Below, in pieces: positions 1 through 16,437 of a stretch of DNA of 17,622 nucleotides; the stretch's first letter is position 1; each line of letters starts with the position of its first letter. The notes beneath the pieces are model-generated. The model worked only from the letters and a program-made list of their open reading frames with translations. It was not told the DNA's origin and did no database searches. This DNA comes from Spirochaetales bacterium (GTDB lineage: Bacteria; Spirochaetota; Spirochaetia; DSM-27196; SLST01), in assembly GCA_030642995.1 (NCBI GenBank), contig DAOWMR010000015.1:1-17622 (forward strand), given 5' to 3'. Made by a program: the position numbers and the translations under genes.

Positions 1-629
1 CTCGGCCGGGAGCCTGAGTTTGTCTCGTCCCGGGGCGGCGGAGATAGCAACAATCTCAACCGGAAAGGTCTCCGAAACGTTGTATTCGGGCTTGGGATGC
101 ACAACATCCACAGCCCCGACGAGTACCTCATGGAAGAGCAAATCTTCGACGCTGTCGATCTGCTTCGAGAGATCGTCTTTCCCCCCAGCTGAACCCGCGG
201 ATACCCCAGCAGGTCTCCCACAGCCCCCCCCCCGACACCGATCGTCGTGAAGCTTTCGGACAGCTCCGTCCGTCTCTTCAACCCGTTCTGTTTTATGTTC
301 GGGTCCACGAAAGCCCCGGCCGGCGGAAAGTCATACCCGTCGAACGATGGAGACGGCAGGCCGGGTTCCTCAAGGTGAAATGGTCTTTGGTCGGTTCGCC
401 AAACGGAACCGAACGGGTCCCGTGCCCTCCCTTCGTCTATGGGTTCCTGTTTCCGCCTATCAATGCCGCAGCATTTCACGATGTAGGGAACGAGTCCTTC
501 CAGCCACGAATCACTGCCATAGTGCTCGGTGAGCCGCTCTACCACGCCGCCCTCAAATCCGAGCGTATACGGGACGGGATTCGTGGGATGGTGTTGGATT
601 TGCTCCAGGACAATCTTGCGCGGTGTCAT
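1..629 (-). CDS. URO-D (uroporphyrinogen decarboxylase / MtaA-like methyltransferase) family protein; 5' portion only, apparently frameshifted (possible pseudogene or homopolymer sequencing error)
   Basis: Hand translation of the minus strand from ATG 629..627 gives MTPRKIVLEQIQHHPTNPVPYTLGFEGG... The start has an SD (AAGGAG, 6-nt spacer). This N-terminus is typical of URO-D family proteins (MTPxERVLxAL...RVP). The protein-like reading moves to a second frame after the C9 run at 225-233 (..TTIGVGGG / LWETCWGIRGFSWG) and to a third frame after the C6 run at 181-186 (KDDLSKQIDSVEDLLFHEVLVGAVDVVHPKPEYNVSETFPVEIVAISAAPGRDKLRLPAE..). The gene continues past the window start. It is not in the supplied ORF track because no stop lies inside the window. 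Confidence 0.4.
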   Translation of the reverse strand, partial: MTPRKIVLEQIQHHPTNPVPYTLGFEGGVVERLTEHYGSDSWLEGLVPYIVKCCGIDRRKQEPIDEGRARDPFGSVWRTDQRPFHLEEPGLPSPSFDGYDFPPAGAFVDPNIKQNGLKRRTELSESFTTIGVGGGAVGDLLGYPRVQLGGKTISRSRSTASKICSSMRYSSGLWMLCIPSPNTTFRRPFRLRLLLSPPPRDETNSGSRP

Positions 630-781
630 GGGTTTCTCCTTGTTGGACGTCCGGGATGACGATACAGAGAGCTTCTTCTTTGCGATTGTATTTCATACTA
701 TTCAATCAATGAATGCAAATTCTGGAGCTGTGGAGCTGAAAACTGACTGATATCAACGAGCGAGATCCAAAACCAGGGGTT

Positions 782-1702
782 GTGAAGAAATGGGTGGTTG
801 CCACCCGTCCATTTGCCCTGCCGGCTTCCACCATGCCGGTGATTTTCGGATTTGTACTGGCCGTTACCATCGGATCAGCAGCCCCCAACTGGGTTCTGTT
901 CTTGATCAGTTTGCCGGCTATGGCGATTCTGCATACCGGCGCCAATCTGCTGAATGATGCCTATGATTACCAAAAAGGAATCGATCGCCGTGTAAACCCC
1001 GTCAGCGGCGGCGTGGTCCGAAAGTGGATAACACCCCGCGAAGCCAAGGTAGCCGGATTCGCCTTTCTCCTGATCGGATTGTTGATGGGGTTGTACATAG
1101 TTTCGGTAGTAGGGATGGCAATCTTCTGGATTGGATTGATTGGTGTGTCTATTGGAATCCTGTATAGCTGGGGGCCGCTGCCGCTGAAATTCAATGCCCT
1201 TGGCGATCTGGCGGTATTCCTCAATTTCGGCGTTCTTGGAGCACTGGGGTCCTGGACGGTTCAGACCGGCTCAGTTTCCTGGGTACCTGCAATCTGGGCG
1301 ATGCCGATGTCGCTGCTGGTGGTGGCGATCCTGCATGCCAACAACTGGCGTGATATTGCGGATGACAGTGCATCCGGAATACGAACCATGGCCAATTTGC
1401 TGGGCGATCCGATTTCGGCACACTACTATTCGGTGCTGCTATTCGGCCCCTTCGCACTCATCATCCTACTGATCATCACCACACGGCTGGTCGATCTCGG
1501 ACCGGAGATGCCCTGGTCGTTTCTGGTAACGCTGCTTGCCGTCCCCGCTGCAATGAAACTCAACCGCAAGGGTCGCCGGAGACATACTTCCGAACAGCCG
1601 CTGGATTTCCTGGCCCTGGATGGAGCTACTGCACAATTCAATCTCCAGTTTGGATTGCTCGGCATTGCGGCCCTGATTATCGATGGTTATTTGCCGTTCT
1701 GA
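782..1702 (+). CDS. menA: 1,4-dihydroxy-2-naphthoate polyprenyltransferase (UbiA superfamily, MenA-like)
   Basis: 306-aa polytopic membrane protein. It has the first Asp-rich motif NDAYDYQKGID and a C-terminal motif HANNWRDIADDSASGIRTMANLLG that matches the MenA NxxNLRDIxxDxxxGKxTL(V)xxLG region. A GTG start at 782 was chosen by the ORF track. The SD spacing is short, so the exact start is uncertain. Confidence 0.75.
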   Translation: MKKWVVATRPFALPASTMPVIFGFVLAVTIGSAAPNWVLFLISLPAMAILHTGANLLNDAYDYQKGIDRRVNPVSGGVVRKWITPREAKVAGFAFLLIGLLMGLYIVSVVGMAIFWIGLIGVSIGILYSWGPLPLKFNALGDLAVFLNFGVLGALGSWTVQTGSVSWVPAIWAMPMSLLVVAILHANNWRDIADDSASGIRTMANLLGDPISAHYYSVLLFGPFALIILLIITTRLVDLGPEMPWSFLVTLLAVPAAMKLNRKGRRRHTSEQPLDFLALDGATAQFNLQFGLLGIAALIIDGYLPF

Positions 1703-1730
1703 GTTTCGTAACTGCGGGTGGTTCGATACA

Positions 1731-3407
1731 ATGCGACCAATGAAACCCAAATTCGCGCGTGTCAGGAATCCCGCCCGAAGCTCGGTCTTCCCCGGAGGCA
1801 GTGAGATCCTCCGCAATCCTCAGCTCAACAAGGGCACTGCCTTCACTGATATGGAGAGAGACGCGCTCGGGATTCGAGGGCTCGTGCCGCCCAGAGTTCA
1901 CACTATCGAGGAGCAGTGCCGACGTTCTCTGGAGAACTTTGCCCGGAAGCCCGACGATCTGGAGCGCTACATCTACATGACGGCTCTCCAGGATCGGAAT
2001 GAAACCCTGTTCTACAAGCTGGTGGCGGATAATCTCGAAGAAATGCTGCCGATCATCTACACCCCAACGGTCGGACAGGCATGCATGGAGTACGGTCATA
2101 TACTCCGGCGCTCGCGGGGCCTTTTCATCTCTGCCCGGGATCGGGGCCGCATTGCCGAGGTGCTGGCAAACTGGCCGCACTCGAACATCCGGATTGTCGT
2201 AGTCACCGACGGAGAGCGGATTCTTGGTCTCGGAGACCTGGGTGCAAATGGTATGGGTATCCCTGTCGGCAAGGCCTCTCTCTACACGGCCTGCGGCGGA
2301 CTGGACCCCTCGGCTTGCCTTCCGGTTACGCTGGACGTTGGAACCGAGAACGAGATATTGCTCGAAGATGAGCTCTACCTCGGAATCCGCCGGCATCGCG
2401 TACGTGGAGATGCCTACCTGGAACTCTTTGAGGAATTCGTTGACGCGATACGAGAGATCTTCCCGCATGCAGTGCTCCAGTGCGAGGACTTCGCGACGGA
2501 AAACGCCTTTGGCCTTTTGGAACGTTACCGGGACCGCCTCTGCCTGTTCAACGACGACATCCAGGGGACGGCGGCTGTTGTTCTTGCCGGACTCTACTCG
2601 GCCGTGCGCATCACCGGGGGGGCTTTCAAAGACCAGCGCATTCTCTTTCTCGGAGCGGGGGAAGCCGGGATTGGTGCCGGAGAGCTCATCGCCTCAGCCC
2701 TGCTTGACGAGGAGCTGTCCGAAGACGCCGCCCGCGAGCGGTGTTGGTTTGTGGATTCCAAAGGGTTGATCGTCCGGTCGCGGTCCAACCTCCCGGAGCG
2801 CAAACGGCGGTTTGCTCACGACTACCGGGAAATCTCTGATTTCCCGACCGCGGTCGCAGCCCTTAAACCGACGGCGATCATCGGTGCATCCGGGCAGCCC
2901 GGGATGTTCTCTCAGTCGGTCCTGGAGACGATGGCGGAAATCAACGCGAGACCGATCATTTTCGCGTTGTCCAATCCTACCTCCAAGTCCGAATGCACGG
3001 CCGAGGAGGCCTATAGACACACCGGGGGTACGGCCGTATTCGCTTCCGGAAGTCCCTTTGAGCCGGTCCGTATCGGGGAGAACACGTACGTCACCGGACA
3101 GGGCAACAACGTGTATGTCTTTCCCGGAGTCGGTCTTGGAGCGGTCACCGCATCGGCGCGCCATATAACCGACAGCATGTTCCTGGCCGCCGCACGAGCC
3201 GTGGCTTCGCAGGTGTCGGATGCCGAGCTGGAGACCGGGCAGATATTCCCTTCACTGCCGCGGATCCACGAGGTGTCCCTCTCGGTCGCAGTGGCAACGG
3301 CTGAGATTGCGTACCGGGATGGGCTGACCGCAGAGGAGCGGCCGGACGATCTGGAGAGGCAGATTCGAGAGTCGATGTACCGCCCGGAATACCGGGCCTA
3401 CGCGTAA
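1731..3407 (+). CDS. maeA: NAD-dependent malic enzyme (malate dehydrogenase, oxaloacetate-decarboxylating)
   Basis: 558 aa. Malic-enzyme signatures are present: PQLNKGTAFT, IYTPTVGQAC, VVTDGERILGLGDLG, GIPVGKASLYTACGG, FNDDIQGTAAV, and a C-terminal PEYRAYA (compare E. coli SfcA AEYRDY). Start ATG 1731 (MRPMKPKF) is preferred over the track ATG 1683, which overlaps the menA end. Confidence 0.9.
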   Translation: MRPMKPKFARVRNPARSSVFPGGSEILRNPQLNKGTAFTDMERDALGIRGLVPPRVHTIEEQCRRSLENFARKPDDLERYIYMTALQDRNETLFYKLVADNLEEMLPIIYTPTVGQACMEYGHILRRSRGLFISARDRGRIAEVLANWPHSNIRIVVVTDGERILGLGDLGANGMGIPVGKASLYTACGGLDPSACLPVTLDVGTENEILLEDELYLGIRRHRVRGDAYLELFEEFVDAIREIFPHAVLQCEDFATENAFGLLERYRDRLCLFNDDIQGTAAVVLAGLYSAVRITGGAFKDQRILFLGAGEAGIGAGELIASALLDEELSEDAARERCWFVDSKGLIVRSRSNLPERKRRFAHDYREISDFPTAVAALKPTAIIGASGQPGMFSQSVLETMAEINARPIIFALSNPTSKSECTAEEAYRHTGGTAVFASGSPFEPVRIGENTYVTGQGNNVYVFPGVGLGAVTASARHITDSMFLAAARAVASQVSDAELETGQIFPSLPRIHEVSLSVAVATAEIAYRDGLTAEERPDDLERQIRESMYRPEYRAYA

Positions 3408-3442
3408 GCTCGCCGAGCCTCCGTGGCAGTGTAACTCTCACA

Positions 3443-4318
3443 TTAACCGCAGATACCCAGGAGAATTTCTCGGATCGGCCCGATATCATCATCATCCGAC
3501 GGGGAACCGAGTATGTGATCTTCGGAGAAGACTATCGAATCACGCAATTCGTCCTGAGCCTTCAGGGTCATCCTGTCATACATGAAGTGAACCTTGTTCG
3601 CCAGAGCCGTTTTGTCTCTGTTGCATTCTTCCCAGTTTGTCAGGATATTCGCATCGAAGTACGCCAGAGAATCAGCGTCGGTCACGACATCTGCCAGGTC
3701 GTTAAGGTTCAACGGCTGCTCAATTTCCGACTGCTTGAGCTGATTCATTCCGTCCTGCTTTTCTCCACCCAGTTCATGCCTGAGAATCAAATAGCGAAGG
3801 TCGTTCGCAAACCCGACGGGGAAATAGCAGCCGTTTCGGGATGCCTGATCAAGAAGTTCCTGCGCTCTTAACGACGAGTTGCGTGCATGTTCTTTCTTGT
3901 GCTCCCGGTAAGTTTCAGGATCGTGCCGTGCTTCCACTTCCCCCATTGTCATCTTGTGCGGGAAAGAGCGGTCTGAATCGTGGAGATGACCAGCGGTTCG
4001 GACGAGTTCAATCGCATACCCGCTAATCCTGAGTTTCATTCCGAGCCTCACGGCAGTTGCTGCGGTGATTTCGGCATGGAGGTAGTCTATGGTGCCGGTT
4101 GTGGGATTGGATATCCTGCTCTGAAGGTATTCGGCGGAAAGGAACTGCGCCCTGTGCAGGCGGATGATTTCGCGGACAGTGTCAGGGTGTATTGCGTCAA
4201 CTCTCACTTCTGGAATTGTGAACCCGATCAATTCCTCATATTTGCCGGCGAGGAAACTGAAGGTTGCGTCCGAAAGATGAAAGGCCTTGTTCTGAAGCGC
4301 TTTGAGTATTTCGTCCAA
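3443..4318 (-). CDS. hypothetical protein with HD-domain-like metal-binding motifs (putative phosphohydrolase)
   Basis: 291 aa, soluble, last gene of the minus-strand operon. Motifs are spaced as in the HD superfamily: DYLHAE, ~35 aa, GHLHDSDR, then RHD, HKKEH and a distal DADSLAYFD. It has a TTG start with a GGGAGA SD. The family call is tentative. Confidence 0.4.
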   Translation of the reverse strand: MDEILKALQNKAFHLSDATFSFLAGKYEELIGFTIPEVRVDAIHPDTVREIIRLHRAQFLSAEYLQSRISNPTTGTIDYLHAEITAATAVRLGMKLRISGYAIELVRTAGHLHDSDRSFPHKMTMGEVEARHDPETYREHKKEHARNSSLRAQELLDQASRNGCYFPVGFANDLRYLILRHELGGEKQDGMNQLKQSEIEQPLNLNDLADVVTDADSLAYFDANILTNWEECNRDKTALANKVHFMYDRMTLKAQDELRDSIVFSEDHILGSPSDDDDIGPIREILLGICG

Positions 4319-4370
4319 GCTATCTCCCGGTATGTATTCGCGAGACTACTCTCCCTGCATGTCTGCGACT

Positions 4371-4580
4371 CTACCTCACCAGCAGCCAGATCCCGACGCC
4401 GATCGCCGCGGCGCCGAAGATGTAGAAGAATATCGCAGTCCCTGTTTCACCGAGCACCTTGATGAATGCCTGAATCTTGCCCATGTTCCATATGCTCTGT
4501 GGCTTCTTGGTGAAGGTCAGAAAGAAAACGAACACGCCGTATAGAACCAGAAATATCCCCAGCAATGCCAAACCGTTCAT
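4371..4580 (-). CDS. small membrane protein (69 aa, two predicted TM helices)
   Basis: ORF MNGLALLGIFLVLYGVFVFF...AIFFYIFGAAAIGVGIWLLVR has two hydrophobic helices. It has a good SD (GAGGAG, 7-nt spacer). It sits between the ABC permease and the HD-like gene in the same orientation. Confidence 0.55.
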   Translation of the reverse strand: MNGLALLGIFLVLYGVFVFFLTFTKKPQSIWNMGKIQAFIKVLGETGTAIFFYIFGAAAIGVGIWLLVR

Positions 4581-4604
4581 ATGTCCACTCCTCTTCTCTG
4601 TTGA

Positions 4605-5609
4605 TTATTGTAGACCGTTCCTGATTCTCTTGTTCAGGAACAGAAAAACCAGCGCGGTAATTGCCAGAACGAAACCGCTGTTCCTGAGGATCAATCCCCA
4701 GGTCGCCTCGTTGAGAATGATAGCATCCAGTGCTTTGTAGGCCCAGTAGAAGGGCGACCAGTAGAGCGCGATTTGCCAGCTGTCCGAGAGGAAGATGGCG
4801 CCGAACACCGAGCCGAAAACGGGGATAAACACGATCTTCATACTTGCCACGGCCTCAATGGGTTCGGTGTTAACCACGCCGATGCTGAATCCGATGATGA
4901 TTCCGATAAATGCAACGCTGATGAAGGATAGGGCAACCATGCCGTAGTTGATGTGTTCGAATCCCAGTATCCAGACAATGCCGAAGGCTCCGACAATCGG
5001 CACCAAAAAGGCAATTACGCTCTTTCCTATGATGAACTCTGTCTTCGAGATGGGAGCGACATTGATTGCCGATAGCGTGTTGCTCATCTTCTCTTCAACA
5101 AGGTTCAGGGTGATCAGCATCCCGCCGAAAACCGCACAGAAGATGATGAGGAAATTTGCTCCGTGCTGTTTGAGCGGCGAGAGTTTCCAGCCGATGTCCG
5201 ATATCCGCACCTCAACGGGGAGAACGACACCCTCATTTTCCAGGGCGTTCACCACCGACTGCAGCATTTGGAGGCCACCAGTTGTCTCATTACCCTGCTG
5301 GATGATGGTGTAACCGTCCTGTGTATTGACCAGTCCGAAGAAATCGTCGGTCTTCCGCACGCGGGCGTTGATACGTTCGATGTCCTCCAGCACCTCTACC
5401 TTGCCGTACCCCTCCAGGTACTCAATCACGATGAGATCAACCGAAGGATCAACCGCAATATTGATCGTCGTCGAACCGGCTCCCGGGATAATGACCTTGA
5501 GGAGGAGGAGGGCAAGCAGGAACGGTGCAATGCTGATATACAGGATGAGAAAATCTCGGGTACCGCTCTTCAGGTCTCTGCGGGTTACCGCCAAGATTCT
5601 TTTCAACAT
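4605..5609 (-). CDS. ABC-2 family transporter permease (second permease)
   Basis: About 6 TM helices with a large first extracytoplasmic loop, typical of ABC-2 permeases. Start moved to ATG 5609 ([13 protein letters not shown]) with a GAGGAGAG SD. The track start at 5654 would overlap the upstream permease by 31 nt. Confidence 0.75.
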
Positions 5610-5623
5610 ATGGTTACTCTCCT

Positions 5624-6658
5624 CTATACCGTCAGAGTTTTCTTGAAGCGCCAATTTGACAGCAGAAAGAAAACAACTCCGGCCAGCGTGAAGCCGAGGA
5701 CGTTCGCGTAGATGTACCCTAGGTTGCCGGCCTCATACAGGGTCTCCCTGAATGCAAAGAGCATGGGATAGGAAGGCAGGATCCTGATGATCAGCGGAGA
5801 GAATGCGGGGTTGTAGTAGGACACCGCGGCGAAGGCGAGGACGATGATGCTCATGTACAGCCATCCCATCGCTTTTGTCATGGTGTTGAAGAAACTGGCG
5901 ATGAACAGCCCGAGCGCCGATCCAAAGACGTTCGTAGCGATCAACAGCAGAATGAGGTGCAGGTAGTGGGCCTTGAGTCCTGCGATAAACGCCGCTGCGA
6001 TCAACCCCGACAACAGCCCCGTTACCAGTATGACCCCCACCTTGCCCAGCAGGTAGTGCCAGACTTTGGCAGGAGTGACCGCGAATGCTCGTATCGTGCC
6101 TTCTTCCTTGTCCAGAAAGATGTATGAAGCGATGATAAACAGCCCCATGAACGCAGCGTTCAGCGCCAGGAAAACCGGAAGCATGTTCAGGCGGTCGGAC
6201 AGTTTTTCGACGTTGCCTTCGAGAGTCGTGACGGTTGTCACGTTCTCGTATCCCGGCATTTCTGCCGCGAACCCGGACTCAATCGAGGTTTTGATGATGT
6301 TCCGGAATTTCTCGTCCTCGTACCCCTGCAGGATGTAGTCATAGACGATTCTGCCGTCTTCCAGACCAACGGCCAGACCAACACTGCCGCGGTCATTCGC
6401 GAGTTCGGTTTCCACTTCCTCTCTGGAGGGCAGAAGAATGATGTCGTATCCCTCCTGGGTGAGAGATTCTTCGGCGGCGGCCTGATAGGGTCCTTCCAGA
6501 TCAAGATGCGCGTACACGGTCACCTTTGGCTCGAAATACTCAGGAACGGCAAGAAGCATGACCGCGACGAAAACAAGCGCAAAACCGATCTCGATGTAGA
6601 TATAGAATCCCTTCAGCGATAACTGCATGTCCTTAAGAAAACTGTAGAGCAGTTTCAT
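5624..6658 (-). CDS. ABC-2 family transporter permease (first permease)
   Basis: 344-aa polytopic membrane protein. It has an N-terminal TM helix, a ~150-aa extracytoplasmic loop and then 5 TM helices. Its start abuts the stop of the ABC ATPase gene (6660). Confidence 0.75.
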
Positions 6659-6659
6659 C

Positions 6660-7514
6660 TTACTGAAGCCCCTTGCCGGTCACCTTGATGAAGATCTCTT
6701 CCAGGGTCGCTTCTTTGGTGTGCATCATCTCCACCTTGCCGGAGTTGACGATGTCATTCAGGTGGTGCATGTCCTTTTCGTCGATGAATGACAGGCGCTC
6801 TTTCTTCACGTCGCCGTTGTCCCGGTATTCCACTTCCACGAGTTGTTCCCCGTGCTGGAGCTTGAGGTTTCTCGGGGAATCGATGAGCTTGATCTCGCCG
6901 TCGATGATGAATGCGACGCGGTCGCAGAGTTCATCGGCGACAAACATGTTGTGGGTAGTGAGGAACACCGTCGTTCCCTTTTCCTTCTCACCCTTCACGA
7001 TCTCCTTGATGACGCTTGCAATTGCCGGGTCCAGGCCGGTGGTCGGCTCGTCAAGGAACCACATTTCGGGACTGTTGAGCATGCTTCGTGCAAAAGTAAG
7101 CCGGTGCTTCATGCCCTTGGAGTATTCTCCTGCCCGCTGTGTTGCGACGTGGTCCAGACCAACAAGCTCGAGCAACTCCTTCGGGTCTCGGGTGGGCACG
7201 TCAAAGAGCCTCCGGTAGAACTCGAGGTTCTCCAGCCCCGTGAGCTTGCCGTACACGTTGGACTGTTCGAAGGAGACACCGATCTTGTTGAACATGGCCC
7301 GGGGTGCCTTCTTCACATCGTAGCCTGCGACGGTGACGTTTCCCTTCTGCAGTGGAAGAAGGCCGGTCATGACACCCTGGGTTGTGGATTTGCCGGCGCC
7401 CGAAGGCCCGAGGAATCCGAAAACCTCACCCTTGGCAATTTCGAAACTTGCGTCCCGTACTGCGTATTTCTCATTATGAGAATAGGAATGATACAGCCCT
7501 TCAACCCTGATCAT
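6660..7514 (-). CDS. ABC transporter ATP-binding protein (ABC-2/DrrA-like)
   Basis: Walker A GPSGAGKST, signature/Walker B YSKGMKHRLTFARSML..FLDEPTTGLD, H-loop TTH. Start ATG 7514 (MIRVEGLYHSY) with an AAGGAG SD. The track GTG at 7535 contains that SD and is therefore unlikely. The start overlaps the SPFH gene end by about 14 nt. Confidence 0.9.
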   Translation of the reverse strand: MIRVEGLYHSYSHNEKYAVRDASFEIAKGEVFGFLGPSGAGKSTTQGVMTGLLPLQKGNVTVAGYDVKKAPRAMFNKIGVSFEQSNVYGKLTGLENLEFYRRLFDVPTRDPKELLELVGLDHVATQRAGEYSKGMKHRLTFARSMLNSPEMWFLDEPTTGLDPAIASVIKEIVKGEKEKGTTVFLTTHNMFVADELCDRVAFIIDGEIKLIDSPRNLKLQHGEQLVEVEYRDNGDVKKERLSFIDEKDMHHLNDIVNSGKVEMMHTKEATLEEIFIKVTGKGLQ

Positions 7515-8655
7515 CGTTCTGCGACTCCTTTTCACTTGATTCTTCGTCTGCCGGATTCCCGGCCCCCGGCTCTTGTAGCACCTGCTTTCCGTATGCGCTC
7601 GCTCCGAGCACCGTTCCGATGTTCATCGATTCCAGAGCGGAAGCGGGCACCAGCACCAACCCGCCCTTGTCCCGCATGCTTTCGTATATCATGTTCATGG
7701 CCCGCAGTTGCAGCGCCACCGGATCATCCCGATATTGCTCCGCAGCCTTCTTGAACGCTCCGGCAATCTCCACCTCGGCCGAACCGAGAATGATGCGAGA
7801 GCCCCGCTCCCGTTCGGCCTGTGCCTGACGGCTGAGAGCGTCCTCGAGCTCCGAGGGAATCAGGATCTCCTTGAACTCGACGGAGATGATGGTGATTCCC
7901 CATGGGTTGGTCTTGGCATCGACGATCTGCTGGATCTCGCCGCCGAGCCTTTCTCGTTCGCTGAGCAGCGTGGTCAGATCATTTGAACCAATGCTTGCCC
8001 TGAGGGCAGTTTGTGCGCTGAGCGACACCGCCTCCTCGAAGTTCTCCACTTCGAGCACGGCTTTTTGCGCGTCCCAGACCATCCAGAAAGCCAGCGCGTC
8101 TACATTCACCGGGACGGTGTCCCGCGTGAGGCTCTTCTCCGCCGAAAAGTCTGTCACCCGGATTCTCGTATCCACATAGCTGGCGGCCGAATCGATGAGC
8201 GGAAACAGGAGCAGCGCGCCGGGGCCCCGCACCTTGTGGAACTTGCCCAGCCGCAACACGATGATTTTGTCCCACTGGCTGATTACCTCCACGCCCGGCG
8301 CGATGAGAAAGCCGATTGTCAGCACGGCTGCCGCATACTGCAGATCGGTGCCGAACACTACGGGCAGCACCGCCCAGATACCGGCGATGATGGCGATAAC
8401 CATCGGCCAGTACGGCAGGATAAACAATACGGCGGCGGCTGCGATGACTCCGGCGGCCAGGTACGACGTCGTCTCGGGGTCCGGGAGCGAGGTTATCAGT
8501 GCCTGAACTCCAAGACCGAGGGCGATGAAAACCAGGATGACCAACGCCGATATGGTGTTGAATCTGAAATGCCCCCGTTGGCGTCCGTTTGGATGAGTTT
8601 TCCTCTGTGCCGTAAACAGGTTCGAGTGAGACCCAATTGCCTTTGTCATGTTCAT
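7501..8655 (-). CDS. SPFH/band-7 (stomatin/prohibitin-like) domain protein with a ~130-aa polytopic N-terminal extension and an acidic C-terminal tail
   Basis: The core IIVLRLGKFHKVRGPGALLLFPLIDS...TRDTVPVNVDALAFW...ERERLGGEIQQIVDAKTNPWGITIISVEFKEI is a classic SPFH domain. The N-terminus has 3-4 hydrophobic helices. The C-terminus is PADEESSEKESQNDDQG. The start ATG overlaps the GntR stop (ATGA at 8652-8655). Confidence 0.8.
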   Translation of the reverse strand: MNMTKAIGSHSNLFTAQRKTHPNGRQRGHFRFNTISALVILVFIALGLGVQALITSLPDPETTSYLAAGVIAAAAVLFILPYWPMVIAIIAGIWAVLPVVFGTDLQYAAAVLTIGFLIAPGVEVISQWDKIIVLRLGKFHKVRGPGALLLFPLIDSAASYVDTRIRVTDFSAEKSLTRDTVPVNVDALAFWMVWDAQKAVLEVENFEEAVSLSAQTALRASIGSNDLTTLLSERERLGGEIQQIVDAKTNPWGITIISVEFKEILIPSELEDALSRQAQAERERGSRIILGSAEVEIAGAFKKAAEQYRDDPVALQLRAMNMIYESMRDKGGLVLVPASALESMNIGTVLGASAYGKQVLQEPGAGNPADEESSEKESQNDDQG

Positions 8656-9059
8656 GTGGTTGCATCCTCCTTGAGGATCGAGAGATACTCAGCCGCTTCA
8701 ACAACGCTGAATCCATACGAAGAAGCCGTGGCCAGGAAAGTGCGAACCAACCCCGCCAGAATCTGTTTACGTTCCTGGGCCGTAAGCTCGATTTTCTTCT
8801 CGCTGATGAAAGTGCCCGTACCCTGCTGCGTATTGACGATCCCGCGGATTTCCAGCTCGCTGTACGCCCGTGCGACGGTATTCGGGTTGATCTTCAGGTC
8901 CACCGCCAGGGCTCGCACCGTCGGCAATTGGTTTCCCGTCCGCAATCTGCCGTCGGCGATGGCCAATTGTGTCTGCATAATGATTTGCCGGTAGAAAGGA
9001 ACTCCGCTCGTCGGATCGAGGAGAAAATGAATACCGCCGGGTTGCCGTTCAGTTGTCAT
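8652..9059 (-). CDS. GntR-family transcriptional regulator, YtrA subfamily (short C-terminal domain)
   Basis: 135 aa. The N-terminal winged HTH (GVPFYRQIIMQTQLAIADGRLRTGNQLPTVRALAVDLKINPNTVARAYSELEIRGIV) is typical of GntR. The C-terminal region is very short (~50 aa), as in YtrA-type regulators that head ABC-transporter operons. It is the first gene of the 7-gene minus-strand operon. Confidence 0.85.
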   Translation of the reverse strand: MTTERQPGGIHFLLDPTSGVPFYRQIIMQTQLAIADGRLRTGNQLPTVRALAVDLKINPNTVARAYSELEIRGIVNTQQGTGTFISEKKIELTAQERKQILAGLVRTFLATASSYGFSVVEAAEYLSILKEDATT

Positions 9060-9073
9060 AGACCGAACCCCTG

Positions 9074-9095
9074 TTGTACTGAATCGTTAGTACAA
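9074..9095. promoter_or_regulatory. candidate GntR operator: inverted repeat TTGTACT-N8-AGTACAA. A third AGTACAAT half-site lies at 9164-9171 and overlaps the putative ctaB -10
   Basis: Perfect 7-bp inverted repeat with a GTAC core, as GntR-family operators commonly have. It lies just downstream of a putative minus-strand promoter (-35 TTGCTG at 9128..9123, 17-nt spacer, -10 TATACT at 9105..9100) and 15-36 nt upstream of the GntR start codon. Confidence 0.45.
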
Positions 9096-9222
9096 TAGAA
9101 GTATAGGGCAGGTTTCGATTTACAGCAAGTGTATTCTGCGTGGTGGCAGCAAGGTTAAATTCGAGTACAATTTCAAGGTCTGGATGCGCAACACCGCCGG
9201 ACAATCACACAGGGAAAATCGG

Positions 9223-10137
9223 ATGGCCACGCAACGACGAACCATTGACGACACACGCAAACATCTGACGGCCAAACTGCGTCTCTACTGGAAGCTGATC
9301 AAGAGTCTCCAGACCGGATTGCTCCTTGCGACCGGCGTGGCGGGCTTCATGAGCGCCCGTTGCCCGGCTCTGGACTGGCGGACGCTACTAGGCATGTCCG
9401 GCAGCCTGTTTCTGGCGATAAGCGGCAGCACCGTTCTCAACATGTGGTACGACCGCGACATCGACGCGAAAATGCTGCGCACGTATTGGCGCCCGTTGCC
9501 ATCAGGCGGGGTCAGCCCGCGTGAGACTGTCGTGCTCGGCCTTGTGCTTTCCATACTGGGAGTGGGGTGGGCCGTAGCTATGCAACCGCTCTACGGACTC
9601 GTTGTGTTTGCCGGGCTGTTCATTGACGTCGTGGTCTACACGATCTGGCTCAAACGACGCACCGCCTGGTCCATTGTGTGGGGTGGGATCTCCGGCGGGA
9701 TGCCGATCCTGGCCGGGCGGGTGCTTGGCATTGCCGCTCTGACGGGAGTGGGGCAGATTGACCTGATCGGAGTTTTGCTGTCGCTGGGGATACTGTTCTG
9801 GATTCCCACCCACATCATGACGTTCAACATGCGCTATCATGATGACTATCAGACCGCGGGCGTGCCCACGTTCCCCTTAGCCTACAGTTTTCAGATGACG
9901 CGGGTGACTATCGCGGTGTCCAGTCTCATTGCGGCTCTGACGATGGGTGGAGCAGTAATGCTTCTCGGCATGACCTGGGGATACTTGCGGTTGCTGGCTG
10001 TGCTCAGCACAGCGCTACTCCTGATGGCCGTCTACAGCGTGGCCCGTCCTTCAGAGAAGATGAACTTTGGTCTCTTCAAGTACGCATCGATCTACATGTT
10101 GAGTCTGATGCTCTTGCTCGTCCTGGGGGCGATATGA
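9223..10137 (+). CDS. ctaB: protoheme IX farnesyltransferase (heme O synthase)
   Basis: UbiA-family membrane protein with the diagnostic heme O synthase motif LNMWYDRDIDAKMLRTYWRPLPSGG (compare N-x-YIDRDID-x-KM-x-RT-x-xRxLxxG). ATG 9223 has an AGGGA SD and a putative -10 TACAAT at 9166-9171. The track start 9184 would leave almost no leader, so 9223 is preferred. Confidence 0.85.
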   Translation: MATQRRTIDDTRKHLTAKLRLYWKLIKSLQTGLLLATGVAGFMSARCPALDWRTLLGMSGSLFLAISGSTVLNMWYDRDIDAKMLRTYWRPLPSGGVSPRETVVLGLVLSILGVGWAVAMQPLYGLVVFAGLFIDVVVYTIWLKRRTAWSIVWGGISGGMPILAGRVLGIAALTGVGQIDLIGVLLSLGILFWIPTHIMTFNMRYHDDYQTAGVPTFPLAYSFQMTRVTIAVSSLIAALTMGGAVMLLGMTWGYLRLLAVLSTALLLMAVYSVARPSEKMNFGLFKYASIYMLSLMLLLVLGAI

Positions 10138-10739
10138 AAAAGATCTCCGTCCTTGACCGGATAGTGCTTCTGATCGTCGGAGTGTTAGCGGCCTATCAGA
10201 TAGTCGTGGGGATCGAGGGATTCTGCACGCTGACCGTCTTGTGCTACACGATCGCCTTCGGCGTGCTTATGTTCGCCGCGCTGCTGTTCATCATCTTTGG
10301 GTTTGACATCCTGGACAGCAAGCTGGTCGTCATCGTGGCTGCGACCATCCCGCTCATCTTGTCGCTGGCACTCATCGCTGAATATCTGCCGTCTGTCAGG
10401 ACGGTGTACATGGCGTTTGCCGTCGTCGGATTCGGTGCGCTTGCCGTCACCCGGTATACCGCCTCCGGTGCTGTTGCGACGGTCGTTCTGGCTACGGTAC
10501 ACGGGATCGCCGGGCTGTTGATCTTCAGCCTGCCGATCATTATTGCCGTGCAGGGAAAGACTTCGCCGGGCTTCGCGTTGGTGGGAGTCGGCGGGGCGTT
10601 AATTGGCACCGGCGGGTCGCTGCTCCTCTTCCTGAAATTGGGCAGGCCTATCCTGTCAAGAGATACGATTTTCACCGTGCTGCCCGTGTTGCTGCTGTTC
10701 ATGACGGCGGCATTCGTGGCCGGGTTGGCGATGCGGTGA
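10134..10739 (+). CDS. uncharacterised polytopic membrane protein (201 aa, ~6 TM), translationally coupled to ctaB
   Basis: Its ATG overlaps the ctaB TGA (ATGA at 10134-10137). The protein is hydrophobic throughout and has no recognisable catalytic motif. Confidence 0.5.
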   Translation: MKKISVLDRIVLLIVGVLAAYQIVVGIEGFCTLTVLCYTIAFGVLMFAALLFIIFGFDILDSKLVVIVAATIPLILSLALIAEYLPSVRTVYMAFAVVGFGALAVTRYTASGAVATVVLATVHGIAGLLIFSLPIIIAVQGKTSPGFALVGVGGALIGTGGSLLLFLKLGRPILSRDTIFTVLPVLLLFMTAAFVAGLAMR

Positions 10740-10748
10740 GGGATTGAG

Positions 10749-11180
10749 ATGGTTGGGAATGAACGCCGGCTCTATGCACTGGCAGGGATCATGTGGAGTG
10801 GCGTCGGTGGCTACCTGGTTTTTCTGGCTTATGGTTGGCTCAAGGCGTTACCCTCATTACGTACCGTTCTTCTCGCAATCGCAGCGGTTCTATTTGCGCT
10901 GGTGATCTACCGTTTTGGCTTCTCTAATCTTGCGAAGAAGAACATCAAACGCATTTCGCTGCTCGAAGGCCGAGTATTCATCTGGGCATTTCAGAGTTGG
11001 CAAAGCTACATCATTATCCCGGTTATGATCGGTTTGGGCATCTTTCTCCGTAACTCACCGCTGCCAAAGCAGTATCTGGCCATCATGTACATCGGCATTG
11101 GTGGCGGCTTATTCTTGTCGAGCCTGCACTACTATGTTTGGCTCGTGCGACCATCTGAGTTGGAAAGGAGTGATGAGTGA
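10749..11180 (+). CDS. uncharacterised membrane protein (143 aa, ~4 TM)
   Basis: A hydrophobic ORF 10 nt downstream of the previous gene with a GAGGGA SD. No family recognised. Confidence 0.45.
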   Translation: MVGNERRLYALAGIMWSGVGGYLVFLAYGWLKALPSLRTVLLAIAAVLFALVIYRFGFSNLAKKNIKRISLLEGRVFIWAFQSWQSYIIIPVMIGLGIFLRNSPLPKQYLAIMYIGIGGGLFLSSLHYYVWLVRPSELERSDE

Positions 11181-11857
11181 TGAATACAATGGCCAAGATC
11201 TTGTGGGTGATCGCAATCATACTGATTGGACTGACGGCGGCAATAACGCTGGTGAGCGGCATCGGTACGTACTGCGTTGCCTGGAACGCCGAGCAATACG
11301 CGGAATTTGCCAACTTTGAGCCGTACAAACCGCTCTACAAGGCGATTGTCGTTCTCACGATTATGGTCGCGCTCGTTGCTGTCGTGGATGTTTATGGCAT
11401 GATACGACGCAAGAAGTGGGCGTACCTGGCCACGCTGTTCACGCTGATCGCAGGTATTGTCGTGGGTGGTACGCACGTGTATTACTCGACCATGTTGCGG
11501 GGAACCGGTATGCCGGGTACCGTCCGGGTTTATCTCTCAGTACTCACACTCGTCGTCCTGCTATTGCTGCGGATTCCCGGCATCTGGCAGGCGATCAACT
11601 CCGGGAAACCATCTGCGGGATCGGGGGCTGGAACGGCAGCCGGTCTGGCGATGAGTGTGTGTGGATTGGCCGTCGTTGCGACGCCCATGTGGGCCGGCCC
11701 GACGCATACTTCTGCCGGCTACAATTGGGTGAATGTCCTGTTGGTGCCCCTGATTGTGGGTGGCGTGGTGTTGATGCTGGCGGGGATAAGTCTGTTGGTG
11801 TTTCCCAAACTGCAAGTGCGTATCGGGAAGCGTCCCCAACCAGTCACGGCACATTAG
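11180..11857 (+). CDS. uncharacterised membrane protein (225 aa, ~6 TM, Gly/Ala-rich central loop)
   Basis: ATG 11180 has an AAGGAG SD (9-nt spacer) and overlaps the upstream TGA by 1 nt. The track GTG start is at 11177. Its stop TAG (11855-11857) overlaps the stop TAA (11856..11854) of the convergent FGE-like gene. Confidence 0.5.
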   Translation: MNTMAKILWVIAIILIGLTAAITLVSGIGTYCVAWNAEQYAEFANFEPYKPLYKAIVVLTIMVALVAVVDVYGMIRRKKWAYLATLFTLIAGIVVGGTHVYYSTMLRGTGMPGTVRVYLSVLTLVVLLLLRIPGIWQAINSGKPSAGSGAGTAAGLAMSVCGLAVVATPMWAGPTHTSAGYNWVNVLLVPLIVGGVVLMLAGISLLVFPKLQVRIGKRPQPVTAH

Positions 11858-12819
11858 GGATTGCGAGCACAACGGAATCCAACTGCCGGACCATAGTACA
11901 CCGGCCCGGCGCTATTCTGTTTCCAGACACGCAGATCCATTTCATAGGTATAAAAACTGCCGCCGCGCATATGACGATAATGCTGGTTCGAGAAATCATC
12001 TCCAACCCACTGCCAGACATTCCCGGCCATGTCATAGAGGCCGTACGGGCTGGCCGAATCGAGTGTTTCGTAATCTTCGTAGGTGTCACCGTTGTAGAAA
12101 CCCACGGGAGTGGTATTGCCCAGCTTCCCAAACATCTTTTCGAACAAGTCGAAAGAAGAATAGGAATTGGCGTTGTTGCCATGAATTTCAGTGCCCCAGG
12201 GGAAAGGCAATCCATACCCGTCCACTAGTTTGGTACCACGAGCGGCTTTCTCCCATTCGGTATCACTGGGGAGCCGCCAACCGTAGAACTCGGCGTACGC
12301 ATTGGCGCCGAACCATGAGACCATTGTCATGGGGTGATTGGCGTATTCAGGGATTGCTGTGAATGATTGCCCATTAAAGGTCAACCGCAAGCCTTCTTCA
12401 TCCAGCGGGATGTAGAGTTTGTCCCCGGCCTTGATTTCAAACTCGTGCTTGTAACCCTGGAAAGGTTCGCCTGCATAGAAACCATACACACCTTCAAGAA
12501 CCGCAACGGATTCCCCGAACTCAACTTCCACCTCACCCACACCAATCTCGCCGGCAGCCAAAGCTTCGTTGAGAAAATCGGCATACTGTTGGTTGGTTAC
12601 GTCGGTGACCATGATCTCATAGTCGTAGTCGACCATGGTCATGTGATCGTGCTGCCCGTAGGGGAACTCACCGGCGGGAATGACAGCCCAGGAATCGGGG
12701 TCAATCCCGGTATCGATAGAGGGCGGTACAATTGCTCCGACGCTGGATGTCGGCGTACAGGCGGTTGTCAACAAAGCAAGCACCGTAAGCAAGATCATGA
12801 GATGTATCAAACGTTTCAT
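11854..12819 (-). CDS. formylglycine-generating-enzyme (FGE/SUMF1) family domain lipoprotein
   Basis: FGE-sulfatase domain signatures: WAVIPAGEFPYG, VTNQQYADFLN, GWRLPSDTEWEKAARG, YDMAGNVWQWVGD, RGGSFY, VGFRCARNP. There is an N-terminal signal peptide with a lipobox-like LLTTAC. Its ATG overlaps the stop of the upstream membrane protein (ATGA at 12816-12819). Confidence 0.85.
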   Translation of the reverse strand: MKRLIHLMILLTVLALLTTACTPTSSVGAIVPPSIDTGIDPDSWAVIPAGEFPYGQHDHMTMVDYDYEIMVTDVTNQQYADFLNEALAAGEIGVGEVEVEFGESVAVLEGVYGFYAGEPFQGYKHEFEIKAGDKLYIPLDEEGLRLTFNGQSFTAIPEYANHPMTMVSWFGANAYAEFYGWRLPSDTEWEKAARGTKLVDGYGLPFPWGTEIHGNNANSYSSFDLFEKMFGKLGNTTPVGFYNGDTYEDYETLDSASPYGLYDMAGNVWQWVGDDFSNQHYRHMRGGSFYTYEMDLRVWKQNSAGPVYYGPAVGFRCARNP

Positions 12820-14357
12820 TCTGACACCCCCTTCAGGGTTTCTTCGAGTTTTTCCAGTTTTCGCTTCTGTTCTGCGATTTCAGACTCGGCGCTGAGTTTC
12901 GTCTCAGCCGCCAGTTCCTGCGCCCAGCGGCCGTTCCTGGTGAGGAGATCGTACAATCGCCACAGCATGAAGACACACAGAATGATGAGCACAACCCCCA
13001 GGCCGATATCGGTCAACAGCATGGTCCAGTTGACGATGGATTGCTGCGCAACTTCGGTGACGAAGAGGCGCTTCATCGAAAAGATAGTCACCGCGCCAAA
13101 AGCCAGATCGGACATCAGGATCAATACCCACCCGAACCATTTGCGGGCTTTGCCCTTCAGGCCCGACAGATCCGCGAAATACATCAGGATGATGGTTGCG
13201 ATCAGCGCTGCGAGGATGTGCCAGTGTCCGGTAAGGGTGACCCGTTCTTCCCGATGCGGCCAGACACGGAATATCTCCTCCAATTTGACTGCCAGAAAAA
13301 TGCCAACGCCACTGACGGTAAAATTCATGAAGACCATCTGCCAACCCGGGCCGAACTTCAACGGGTCGTGCAGGAGCGCCTTGATTTTCTGCCAGGCGTT
13401 GGGTTTTTCGATACCCAGTTCCGCGATGCGATTCTTGATTTGTTGATCCCAGGAGAAGATCACATATAGCAGGGCGGCTGTCATCACCAGGACGGACCCA
13501 ATATAGATGATGTTGTGTGCCCACGTGAACCACACAATGGACAGCGCGCCAATCGTGATCACAATTGTGCCGGAAATCATCAGCCACATGGCGATCTTGT
13601 GGAAGATCCCTTTGAACTTCATCCAGCGGCCCACAATCAATGTGAGGGCGACCGCGATCAGGGTCAGCATGATATGCAGGTGGCCTACAATGGCCTTCTG
13701 CAAAGCTGTCTTCAGGGGGATGCGGATCAGGTCTTCCGCCAGGAAGGTTTCGTGGCCGTTACCCCAATACGAGCCGGTCACCGCGCCAAAAGAAGCGGAG
13801 ATCAACGCGGCAGCAACCATCACGAAGAAGGCGGCTCGCTCCAGATCAATACCTTTCCGGGTGTGTGCGTAGGGCGAATCCTCCGGCAAGAGGTATTCCT
13901 TTTTCCAGGGCCACAACGCGGCGCCTAACAGCAAACCCGCGAAGAAGACTAACGACTGGCCAACCAGGAACAGACCGTGGTAGACGAAATTGTGGCCAAA
14001 GTAGCCAAAGATCAAGCCGAAAATGATAGCCGTCAAATAGCCGATGGTGATGGTGGTGTTGATCATGGTCTGTTCGTGTTTTTTCATCGGCACCATACCG
14101 GTGATGAAATACACTTCAATTGCCAGGATCGTCATGGCAATGGTGTGATAGAGCATGATGATTCGCCCTTCACGTTCAGCCTGAACCAAATCCATATTGA
14201 GGAGGCGGACGGTGATGTCTCTGACACCCCATTCGACCATCGGGCCGGAGAGCGTTCCCCAGACGGCGGTTGCCACCGCAACGACAGCCATTGCGACCAG
14301 CGCCAATCCCTTGGTCGAAGTGAAGAGATAGGTAAGTCGTTTTTTTAGTCCTTGCAT
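12816..14357 (-). CDS. uncharacterised 12-TM histidine-rich integral membrane protein with a C-terminal coiled-coil tail
   Basis: 513 aa from ATG 14357 (GGAGG SD, 7-nt spacer). The track TTG start is at 14381. Twelve hydrophobic helices are predicted. Intramembrane or helix-edge histidines occur at TM2 (LYHTIAM), after TM3 (GHNFVYHG), TM6 (GHLHIML), after TM7 (AHN) and at TM10 (GHWHIL). The C-terminus ELAAETKLSAESEIAEQKRKLEKLEETLKGVSE is a charged heptad-like region. No named family recognised. Confidence 0.6.
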   Translation of the reverse strand: MQGLKKRLTYLFTSTKGLALVAMAVVAVATAVWGTLSGPMVEWGVRDITVRLLNMDLVQAEREGRIIMLYHTIAMTILAIEVYFITGMVPMKKHEQTMINTTITIGYLTAIIFGLIFGYFGHNFVYHGLFLVGQSLVFFAGLLLGAALWPWKKEYLLPEDSPYAHTRKGIDLERAAFFVMVAAALISASFGAVTGSYWGNGHETFLAEDLIRIPLKTALQKAIVGHLHIMLTLIAVALTLIVGRWMKFKGIFHKIAMWLMISGTIVITIGALSIVWFTWAHNIIYIGSVLVMTAALLYVIFSWDQQIKNRIAELGIEKPNAWQKIKALLHDPLKFGPGWQMVFMNFTVSGVGIFLAVKLEEIFRVWPHREERVTLTGHWHILAALIATIILMYFADLSGLKGKARKWFGWVLILMSDLAFGAVTIFSMKRLFVTEVAQQSIVNWTMLLTDIGLGVVLIILCVFMLWRLYDLLTRNGRWAQELAAETKLSAESEIAEQKRKLEKLEETLKGVSE

Positions 14358-14439
14358 ATCTATGCCTCCAAATAGGGACAAACAGTCAACTTGATTGTGA
14401 AAGGTTCCACGAAGTTATCATGAAATATCGAGAGAGTCC

Positions 14440-14453
14440 TTGACCAAGGTCAA
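14440..14453. promoter_or_regulatory. perfect 14-bp palindrome TTGACCAAGGTCAA (operator copy 1) with a conserved flank, upstream of the histidine-rich membrane protein gene
   Basis: TTGACC-AA-GGTCAA is a perfect inverted repeat, 89 nt upstream of ATG 14357. Its left half could double as a -35 (TTGACC, 18-nt spacer, GATATT on the minus strand). A second copy is at 16257-16270. Confidence 0.6.
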
Positions 14454-14469
14454 GTTCCAAGGAAACCAC

Positions 14470-14497
14470 CCCCTCTCCGGCAAGAACCAGAGAGGGG
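14470..14497 (-). terminator. candidate rho-independent terminator for the upstream two-gene minus-strand unit
   Basis: GC-rich stem CCCCTCTCCGG / CCAGAGAGGGG (11 bp, one mismatch) with a 6-nt loop. On the minus-strand transcript it is followed by GUGGUUUCCUUGG (a weak U-tract). It lies 46 nt downstream of the stop at 14544 and just upstream of the operator/promoter for the next gene. Confidence 0.4.
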
Positions 14498-14543
14498 CGA
14501 TCTCGCGGGCGAAGGCAGAAGAAGGATTTACCCTGACTTCAGA

Positions 14544-15341: not shown

Positions 15342-15351
15342 GATGATTCTC

Positions 15352-16188: not shown

Positions 16189-16256
16189 TTTCACTCTCCT
16201 AGGAAAAAAATTGCGTTCTAGTGTCATGAGAATCGCAGATAAATTCGAAAGAGTAA

Positions 16257-16403: not shown

Positions 16404-16437
16404 GGGAAACACCGAAAGAGAACGGGAAGGAACCGAA

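Follow-up and report, generated by a model that had tools for sequence, protein, structure and literature searches.

A YtrA-type GntR regulator and a stomatin-like SPFH protein ahead of an ABC-2 cassette in a Spirochaetales bacterium: a probable composite operon

Related operons and the layout of the seven-gene run

GntR regulators of the YtrA subfamily are typically encoded by the first gene of an ATP-binding cassette (ABC) operon that they themselves repress, with long palindromes of ~24 bp that overlap the promoter or the start site (PMC6746942). The operons closest to the one described here are Bacillus subtilis ytrABCDEF, Staphylococcus aureus pmtR-pmtABCD, the Mycobacterium tuberculosis Rv1152 operon, and Sulfolobus acidocaldarius YtrA with its membrane-protein genes; their first gene encodes a small regulator (~125–135 aa) with a winged helix-turn-helix (wHTH) and a short C-terminal dimerisation region, the other genes encode an ABC exporter or membrane proteins, and a long promoter palindrome leads one to expect autorepression. 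Tsypik and colleagues (2016) reportedly described YtrA regulators paired with membrane proteins in actinomycetes. We describe here a run of seven genes in a Spirochaetales bacterium (GenBank assembly GCA_030642995.1, contig DAOWMR010000015.1), lying at 9059..3443 on the minus strand of a window of 17,622 nucleotides (the whole stretch of DNA analysed, positions 1 to 17,622 of the contig). The run starts with a YtrA-type GntR gene followed by an SPFH gene, a four-gene ABC-2 cassette and an HD-like gene. At a probability of roughly 0.6, we read it as a composite operon with a stress-type function, in which two modules that appear to be conserved independently of each other, the GntR–SPFH pair and the ABC-2 cassette, are followed by an unrelated HD-like neighbour.

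The regulator has the properties of the YtrA subfamily: it is a wHTH protein of 135 aa (the subfamily range is about 120–135), it is encoded by the first gene of an operon that includes an exporter, and there is a long palindrome at its own predicted promoter. The locus departs from the YtrA-subfamily operons in that the gene always next to the regulator encodes a stomatin-like SPFH protein and not an ATPase, and in that the type of exporter is exchangeable or missing. The SPFH protein in turn resembles the prokaryotic stomatins or slipins (Pyrococcus horikoshii PH1511, Escherichia coli QmcA, and SPFH1 of Hinderhofer et al. 2009) in having a Band_7 domain with a C-terminal helical region and an N-terminal membrane anchor, but it has four transmembrane (TM) helices and an FRF motif where those proteins have a single anchor or hairpin. 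Its partner is also different, being a transcription factor; NfeD, the conserved operon partner of SPFH genes in a study that leaves GntR and ABC genes unmentioned (PMC2636767), was not found here. There is a further likeness, by analogy only, to stress-induced SPFH and membrane-protection operons such as the sigmaW-dependent yuaFGI/floT of B. subtilis, psp and lia, where a scaffold is under a dedicated stress-type regulator and is co-expressed with envelope proteins (PMC2636767 in part). The regulatory parts are not homologous, and in contrast to those operons the YtrA repressor is encoded in cis and coupled to the SPFH gene, with no NfeD/YuaF-like partner found. The component families are ordinary, and operons that combine a YtrA regulator with an ABC exporter are already known. 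As far as our searches tell, what is new is an invariant, translationally coupled YtrA–stomatin module that has a predicted operator of its own and can be followed by different cargo, by which we mean the genes behind it; we found no published description of a YtrA-type repressor paired with a stomatin in the full-text literature searched, which agrees with the view of an earlier sequence-only reading of this DNA that an SPFH-scaffolded ABC-2 exporter under a YtrA regulator had not been described.

The seven genes are as follows.

9059..8652, minus strand: GntR regulator of the YtrA subfamily, 135 aa; PF00392 at 53 bits against a cutoff of 27, residues 23-85
8655..7501, minus strand: stomatin-like SPFH protein, 384 aa; Band_7 at 115 bits against a cutoff of 23.6
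7514..6660, minus strand: DrrA-like ABC ATPase, 284 aa; ABC_tran at 92 bits; best NCBIfam model the DrrA subfamily at 243 bits, under its cutoff of 312
6658..5624, minus strand: ABC-2 permease 1, 344 aa; ABC2_membrane_3, with weak similarity to FLQE3_permease
5609..4605, minus strand: ABC-2 permease 2, 334 aa; ABC2_membrane_3
4580..4371, minus strand: small two-TM protein, fourth gene of the ABC-2 cassette, 69 aa; its sole Pfam match is a sub-threshold one to DUF1206
4318..3443, minus strand: HD-like protein, 291 aa; TTG start with its own GGGAG ribosome-binding site; Pfam HD at 19.1 bits, below the cutoff of 22

Reading the sequence and comparing the products with Pfam and NCBIfam bears out what the sequence-only reading had said of the coordinates, co-orientation, junctions and domains of these seven open reading frames (ORFs). 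The GntR and SPFH genes share an ATGA (4-nt overlap) and the SPFH and ATPase genes overlap by 14 nt; the ATPase ATG has a GGAG 9 nt upstream of it, and there is an alternative GTG start at 7535. A 1-nt gap separates the ATPase from permease 1, a 14-nt gap with an AGGAG inside it separates the two permeases, and the remaining spacers are 24 nt (permease 2 to the 69-aa gene) and 52 nt (69-aa gene to the HD-like gene). A scan for consensus promoters and terminators gave no convincing candidate inside the run, and RNA folds 3′ of the 69-aa gene (z = -1.3) and of the HD-like gene (z = -0.06) are no better than those of shuffled sequences. Pfam searches with the HD-like and 69-aa proteins yielded only the sub-threshold matches listed above.

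The GntR–SPFH pair and its predicted operator

We compared ~160 loci in all, in two sets. For the genome set, one genome per GTDB species was scanned with an alignment of SPFH proteins and the best 80 of at least 558 relatives were examined; for the metagenome set, contigs were scanned with the non-spirochaete SPFH branch as query and the best 80 of at least 302 matches were examined. Six-frame ORFs of these loci were searched (phmmer) with the window proteins and with the proteins of a relative that has a MacB-type exporter. The genome-set loci are mostly from Spirochaetota, including Sphaerochaeta, Alkalispirochaeta, Marispirochaeta and Thalassospirochaeta, together with a few metagenome-assembled genomes (MAGs) labelled Gemmatimonadota, Holophagae, Latescibacterota and Myxococcota. 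The window SPFH protein itself has a 100% identical copy on a metagenome scaffold and relatives that number thousands; those whose source is named are 'slipin family protein' entries from Spirochaetales or Spirochaetota MAGs at 60–90% identity.

A GntR gene lies upstream of the SPFH gene on the same strand in about 150 of the 151 loci with upstream DNA, and is directly adjacent in nearly all of them. This is so for all 78 such loci of the genome set, where the remaining two loci start within the SPFH gene and where the only non-adjacent pair is in L036 (~175 nt between the genes, with a short GntR ORF). About 72 of the 73 metagenome loci with upstream DNA also have it, L159 being the exception, and the gap in L138 is 600 nt. 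Of the 80 loci scored for the junction (78 scan loci, L003 and the window), 48 have a start codon that allows a 4-nt overlap, mostly as ATGA, and at nearly all of the other scored junctions the best candidate start gives an overlap or a gap of no more than 30 nt. Pairwise distances among the GntR proteins correlate with those among the SPFH proteins (r = 0.78), which fits co-inheritance and is no proof of interaction. Judged by these comparisons, the conserved unit is a two-gene module of a YtrA-type GntR and an SPFH protein with its own predicted DNA operator, present in Spirochaetota and in MAGs whose labels assign them to four or more further phyla.

The SPFH gene therefore belongs where it is, as the sequence-only reading had supposed, since it is beside the regulator in essentially every relative. 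That reading had taken the absence of both the SPFH and HD genes from relatives as the mark of a fortuitous insertion; the SPFH gene is kept in them and the HD-like gene is missing. It had also described a ytrABCD core into which an SPFH gene was inserted, and this part has to be given up: the invariant core is GntR–SPFH, often alone or ahead of some other exporter, and the ABC-2 cassette is independent of it and linked to a TetR gene elsewhere. We accordingly rejected an insertion of SPFH into a pre-existing YtrA–ABC operon.

Chance is very far from accounting for the way the first six genes are arranged, because both the GntR–SPFH adjacency (~150 loci) and the order ATPase, permease 1, permease 2, 68-aa protein (below) recur. 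Chance adjacency was rejected on this conservation, which extends over several phyla. An anti-phage defence island was rejected too: PADLOC returned generic ATPase matches for the ABC ATPase, the only point in its favour, and none for the GntR, SPFH, permease, 69-aa and HD-like proteins. We regard either of these explanations as scarcely credible. In L132 a classical YtrA-like GntR gene followed by an ABC ATPase gene, without SPFH (10733-12054, minus strand), lies a few kb from a GntR–SPFH pair on the same contig, and the two styles of operon thus coexist in one genome.

The closest solved relatives of the window GntR protein are the small YtrA-like proteins 3NEU, 4R1H, 3BY6, 4HAM and 6SBS, all with near-full-length alignments (residues 19-126 align with 11-117 of the 125 residues of 3NEU), in keeping with its earlier assignment as a YtrA-type regulator. 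Its similarity to the NCBIfam models for Rv1152 and PmtR is also full-length, but the scores (74 against a cutoff of 170, and 62 against 200) are under both cutoffs, and it is therefore the equivalog of neither.

Upstream of the GntR gene we recognise a candidate promoter and operator.

9123..9128, minus strand: candidate -35 hexamer TTGCTG, read from the sequence, with a 17-nt spacer to the -10
9100..9105, minus strand: candidate -10 hexamer TATACT, directly upstream of the operator, suggested by the phylogenetic footprint
9074..9095, strand not assigned: 22-bp palindrome TTGTACTAACGATTCAGTACAA, predicted YtrA-type repressor operator, consensus TTGTACTAA-N4-TTAGTACAA; it spans the likely transcription start

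The palindrome begins 4 nt past the TATACT and ends 14 nt short of the GntR ATG. Elsewhere in the window no site has three or fewer mismatches to the consensus (200 shuffles give an expectation of 0), and a site within this limit is present in the 200 nt upstream of GntR in 56 of 77 related loci. The fetched loci, 1.2 Mb in total, contain 59 sites in 58 loci (57 with one and one with two). Across the loci the palindrome is either between the promoter hexamers or just past them. Relatives have a clear TTGACA at the position equivalent to the -35 of the window, and the closest ones (L004–L006) have CTATATT at the same distance from the operator; in Sphaerochaeta the palindrome is directly 3′ of a consensus TTGACA. 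The non-spirochaete clade has a related motif, ATTGTACTA-N5/6-TAGAACA, at -10 distance after TTGACA. Autorepression by GntR through the predicted operator is a well-supported prediction, because a palindrome placed on the promoter matches the YtrA-type pattern and because GntR aligns over nearly its full length with the YtrA structures.

The SPFH protein is closest among solved structures to P. horikoshii stomatin (PH1511, 3BK6; 7e-39), human stomatin (for which there are 16-mer cage structures; ~1e-34) and QmcA (3e-27), while the match to the HflK structure is only 3e-6. Residues 109-337 can be aligned with human stomatin and 116-290 with QmcA. Scores are below all NCBIfam equivalog cutoffs (HflK 66.6 against 159.4, HflC 35 against 134.4, FloT 15.7 against 700). 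Four hydrophobic helices are predicted in the N-terminal part, at 34-54, 60-79, 83-101 and 106-130, in a low-confidence AlphaFold2 (AF2) model, and they are conserved in the alignments; the same model has long helices at 268-307 and 312-330. Ahead of the first TM helix is a basic tail closed by an invariant FRF motif, which reads RGHFRFN in the spirochaetal proteins and (A/G)DFRF in those of the second clade, and R27, F32, N33 and S36 are invariant. The N-terminus and the SPFH and coiled-coil parts are most likely cytoplasmic, because the number of helices is even and because basic residues precede TM1 and follow TM4 (the positive-inside rule). In QmcA, the N-terminus and SPFH domain are reported to be cytoplasmic. 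By homology to stomatin and QmcA, the protein most likely forms a ring or cage at the inner membrane face.

No NfeD domain was matched by Pfam in the proteins of the operon or in the N-terminal extension of the SPFH protein, or in genes called within 10 kb in three relatives. Pfam searches at E values up to 10 with this extension, and with the 525-aa lipoprotein and the 437-aa protein described below, gave nothing meaningful. A HMMER search of 1.84 billion representative sequences with the N-terminal 125 aa gave 12 matches, mostly fragments, which are uninformative on the size of the family.

The relatives among solved structures bring up a further explanation, namely that the protein is an HflK/C- or QmcA-like cage that regulates a membrane protease (FtsH or Lon) encoded elsewhere, with the exporters as no more than co-regulated stress genes. 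QmcA and HflK/C are both among these relatives, and L098, in the second clade, has a Lon protease gene ~200 nt past the SPFH gene on the same strand (7600-10035, plus strand). It is the only protease gene seen by the module; neither a protease nor an NfeD gene is conserved near it, the HflK and HflC scores are far under their cutoffs, and we consider this explanation very improbable.

A second possibility follows from the pair itself. The stomatin assembly could be a sensory partner that binds or releases the YtrA repressor according to the state of the membrane, in an anti-repressor or sequestration circuit of the PspA–PspF kind, and the pair would then serve for signalling, with the exporters as outputs. 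What is invariant is the pair and no cargo, and the pair is often found on its own; by 2019 none of the YtrA members had been assigned a physiological ligand (PMC6746942), and these are the two points that make this possibility attractive. The ATGA coupling would favour a fixed stoichiometry, the FRF motif is invariant in both clades and predicted to be cytoplasmic and juxtamembrane, and the GntR and SPFH distances are correlated. The correlation can be explained by shared descent alone, though, and a plain autorepressed operon with SPFH as its main product explains the same data; the orientation of the SPFH protein is itself a prediction, and contact between GntR and SPFH only a proposal. We therefore regard this as a tentative option of low likelihood. 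Its specific form, a self-contained membrane-state circuit in which the SPFH protein would capture and release the repressor through the FRF motif or the cage, and so switch on both itself and the attached exporter, is speculative and unlikely. If true, it would show for the first time how a YtrA regulator receives its signal and would give a bacterial stomatin a defined molecular role. YtrA-type repressors and bacterial stomatins are both widespread, and for most bacterial stomatins we know of no defined client beyond the links to NfeD and FtsH.

Exporter cassettes and other genes behind the pair

The genes that follow the pair vary. Cargo was tallied for 82 genome-set loci (the 80 scan loci, L003 and the window), of which 58 have a MacB/FtsX exporter, six have an ABC-2 exporter (the window included) and 18 have neither. 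The MacB-type cassette is complete in 48 of 57 loci and consists of an ATPase, two FtsX permeases, a TP_0789/LolA-like protein and a protein of ~437 aa without a Pfam match; this five-gene set is the commonest cargo (L003:11227-16654 and about 57 other Spirochaetota loci). The combination of MacB, FtsX and LolA-like proteins suggests export of a lipoprotein or lipid type rather than drug efflux. At several of the 18 loci with neither exporter, the gene directly after SPFH is on the opposite strand, and the pair is therefore a two-gene operon there. Over all the loci compared, SPFH is in many cases directly followed by an opposite-strand gene.

In the non-spirochaete clade the usual follower, at 20 or more loci, encodes a predicted lipoprotein of ~525 aa with a lipoprotein signal (…LLVAC) and no Pfam family, its only match being DUF3352 at E = 0.01. 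It is a third kind of cargo behind GntR–SPFH. Loci with this gene include L087 (8181-9749, plus strand), L089, L091, L097, L099, L114, L117, L121, L123, L130, L132, L141, L151 and L154. Less often, loci of this clade have an ATPase with a single ABC-2 permease, or nothing. Where an ATPase gene follows SPFH, the junction is mostly between -4 and +3 nt (60 loci). In L005 (6272-8069) and L006 (1933-3543) there is an extra ATPase-like ORF (~95 bits to the ABC-2 ATPase) with further sequence between SPFH and the ABC-2 cassette.

The cassette in the window encodes an ABC_tran ATPase and two permeases of the ABC-2 family (ABC2_membrane_3 scores of 52 and 75 bits, where the cutoff is 31.6), and is an ABC-2 (type V) exporter by composition. 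With one DrrA-like ATPase and two ABC-2 permeases it is similar to the DrrAB type and to the fluoroquinolone-export type (M. tuberculosis Rv2686c–Rv2688c; FLQE3_permease). It differs from both in that the FLQE3_permease and DrrA scores are below cutoff, in its ABC2_membrane_3 architecture, and in a conserved fourth gene of 68 or 69 aa. The score to FLQE3_permease (PF24686) is 36.6 bits against a cutoff of 60, and no NCBIfam model named either permease. Homologues of permease 1 include proteins of Clostridium sp. DL1XJH146 and Alkalibaculum sp. M08DMB; the JGI name of one homologue is 'fluoroquinolone transport system permease'.

The order ATPase, permease 1, permease 2, 68-aa protein is seen again in other Spirochaetota, in genomes of two Firmicutes and in two unlabelled metagenome contigs. 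The small gene follows permease 2 in the locus of P0007, in L004–L006 and L064, and also in L167, L168 and L170 (Firmicutes and unlabelled); because it is kept in this position across loci, the 69-aa gene is part of the cassette. A relative of the operon that is 80% identical ends with the 68-aa gene, after which there are convergent dehydrogenase genes. A TetR regulator gene precedes the cassette, and SPFH is missing, in three cases: Clostridium sp. DL1XJH146, Alkalibaculum sp. M08DMB and an unlabelled contig from a metagenome. That the closest cassettes outside Spirochaetota are TetR-linked speaks indirectly against simple orthology of the transporter genes to YtrB, YtrC and YtrD (or YtrE and YtrF). 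In order, the products of these TetR-linked cassettes are an ATPase of 284–292 aa, permeases of 344 and 333 aa, and the 68-aa protein.

L167:4490-8472: TetR-linked ABC-2 cassette, by homology to the window cassette
L168:4510-8275: TetR-linked ABC-2 cassette, by homology to the window cassette
L170:4491-8268: TetR-linked ABC-2 cassette, by homology to the window cassette

A second unlabelled contig encodes the ATPase and the two permeases and has no regulator gene beside them, and a 40-aa ORF is called where the 68-aa gene is expected. The Clostridium cassette is 80/67/64% identical to that of the window (ATPase, permease 1 and permease 2), compared with 81/65/66% for the spirochaete L004 (SPFH 74%) and 76/61/60% for the spirochaete L028 (SPFH 51%). 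The Clostridium cassette is thus as close as that of L004 and closer than that of L028, and the history of the cassette therefore differs from that of the GntR–SPFH pair. On this evidence from gene order and identity, the ABC-2 cassette is a portable four-gene unit, independent of GntR–SPFH. We note that the 80% identity of the Clostridium and window ATPases, across phyla, points to horizontal transfer.

These data bear directly on the model of the sequence-only reading, in which the seven genes form a dedicated unit for microdomain efflux or immunity and this one ABC-2 exporter requires SPFH as a scaffold subunit. The tight SPFH–ATPase coupling, with its 14-nt overlap here and similar coupling in the closest relatives, agrees with that model, as do the co-orientation of all seven genes and the failure of our scan to find an internal terminator. 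Against it are the TetR-linked cassettes without SPFH in Clostridium sp., Alkalibaculum sp. and the unlabelled contig, an SPFH family that is mostly followed by MacB/FtsX, by a lipoprotein gene or by nothing, and an HD-like gene that is in no other locus and has a synteny break just upstream of it. Because the core is GntR–SPFH, the cassette is portable and the HD-like gene is unlinked, an obligate scaffold is unlikely; the looser form of the idea, a stomatin cage co-expressed with exchangeable exporters, is possible.

The composite reading accounts for the locus as follows. Module 1 (9128..7501) would comprise the promoter, the 22-bp operator and the YtrA-type GntR gene coupled to the gene for the four-TM SPFH protein, and a GntR dimer on the palindrome would shut off its own operon. 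Module 2 (7514..4371), the four-gene ABC-2 cassette, would have been captured behind module 1 and become translationally coupled to SPFH. From what is known of YtrA- and PmtR-type systems, perturbation of the membrane or envelope would probably lift repression, and the de-repressed cell would make the exporter along with the stomatin cage. This cage may then organise or protect a membrane patch or the transporter, and the exporter may remove the offending amphipathic compound.

Several points count against this composite reading or qualify it. The candidate -35 of the window is weak (three of six matches) and was missed by the consensus scan. The neighbour-joining tree of SPFH proteins, in which the ABC-2 loci fall at three separate points among MacB-type loci, has no support values. 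Cargo classes come from phmmer with a small query set and six-frame ORFs, such that some of the loci scored as having none may hold unrecognised cargo; one example is L075, where an ABC-2 pair escaped the classification. The AF2 monomer model of SPFH is poor (pLDDT 50, from a 30-sequence alignment) and was therefore used for helix counts only, and the oligomeric state and topology of the protein are purely inferred. Lastly, transcription may read through from the operon into the HD-like gene, as no terminator is evident.

The loci also show an interchange of exporter cassettes behind a regulatory module that stays the same, and for annotation the presence of the pair predicts that an envelope export cargo comes next. 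The pair is present in the cultured strains Sphaerochaeta halotolerans 4-11 (L082), Sphaerochaeta sp. S2 (L056) and Marispirochaeta associata JC231 (L061), which makes the inducer, possible feedback between stomatin and regulator, and possible action of the cage on ABC exporters genetically tractable.

The HD-like gene and the flanking region

The sequence-only reading had the HD-like gene appended to the operon. Among the loci compared it adjoins GntR–SPFH in the window only and is missing from every other GntR–SPFH locus, and its homologues are in unrelated contexts. The family is small (60 matches) and all of its named members are from Spirochaetes. A relative of the HD/malic-enzyme block that is 88% identical keeps the convergent malic-enzyme gene, and its upstream genes are different, encoding a lipoprotein of 154 aa and one further membrane protein. 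The match to this relative begins at ~4342, inside the 52-nt spacer (window ~4342-4371 compared with L171:1423-1453), and the six-gene block from GntR to the 69-aa gene therefore seems to have been inserted or deleted with respect to it. By these comparisons the HD-like gene is part of an HD/malic-enzyme block, outside the conserved unit, and at most a read-through passenger.

In the HD-like protein, seven residues (H81, H111, H113, D114, H144, H181 and D216) do not vary among 23 homologues. Its AF2 model is of high confidence (pLDDT 93.9), and the best Foldseek matches are all HD hydrolases (PgpH, YpgQ, YqeK, YfbR and GppA), at weak E values of ~0.03 and TM-scores of 0.3–0.6; a profile of the family had no match among the sequences of the PDB. 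We read it as a divergent HD phosphohydrolase. Its homologues are found with genes for PRK-family kinases, MFS proteins and proteins of the metallo-beta-lactamase fold, or in LacI/GH130 loci. In the loci of P0133 and P0149 (L086:8001-9721), they repeatedly adjoin a PRK-family (uridine-kinase-like) gene, an MFS gene and a metallo-beta-lactamase-fold gene whose Pfam match is Anti-Pycsar Apyc1-like. These neighbours hint at nucleoside or cyclic-nucleotide metabolism, and going by them the substrate is probably nucleotide-like.

The seven-gene run is flanked by the convergent malic-enzyme gene (1683..3407) and by a divergent gene for a UbiA-family prenyltransferase (9184..10137). Rfam and tRNA scans of the window gave no matches. 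Beyond the run, the intervals 10134-11857 (plus strand), 12816-14381 (minus strand) and 14544-16227 (minus strand) hold ORFs of 201, 143, 226, 521, 272 and 291 aa without a Pfam match at E ≤ 1e-5, and a gene with an FGE-sulfatase domain lies at 11854-12819 (minus strand). UbiA-family paralogues are present on both sides of the region, at 782-1702 and 9184-10137, both on the plus strand, and the second of these is divergent from the GntR promoter region and has a 124-nt intergenic spacer in common with it.

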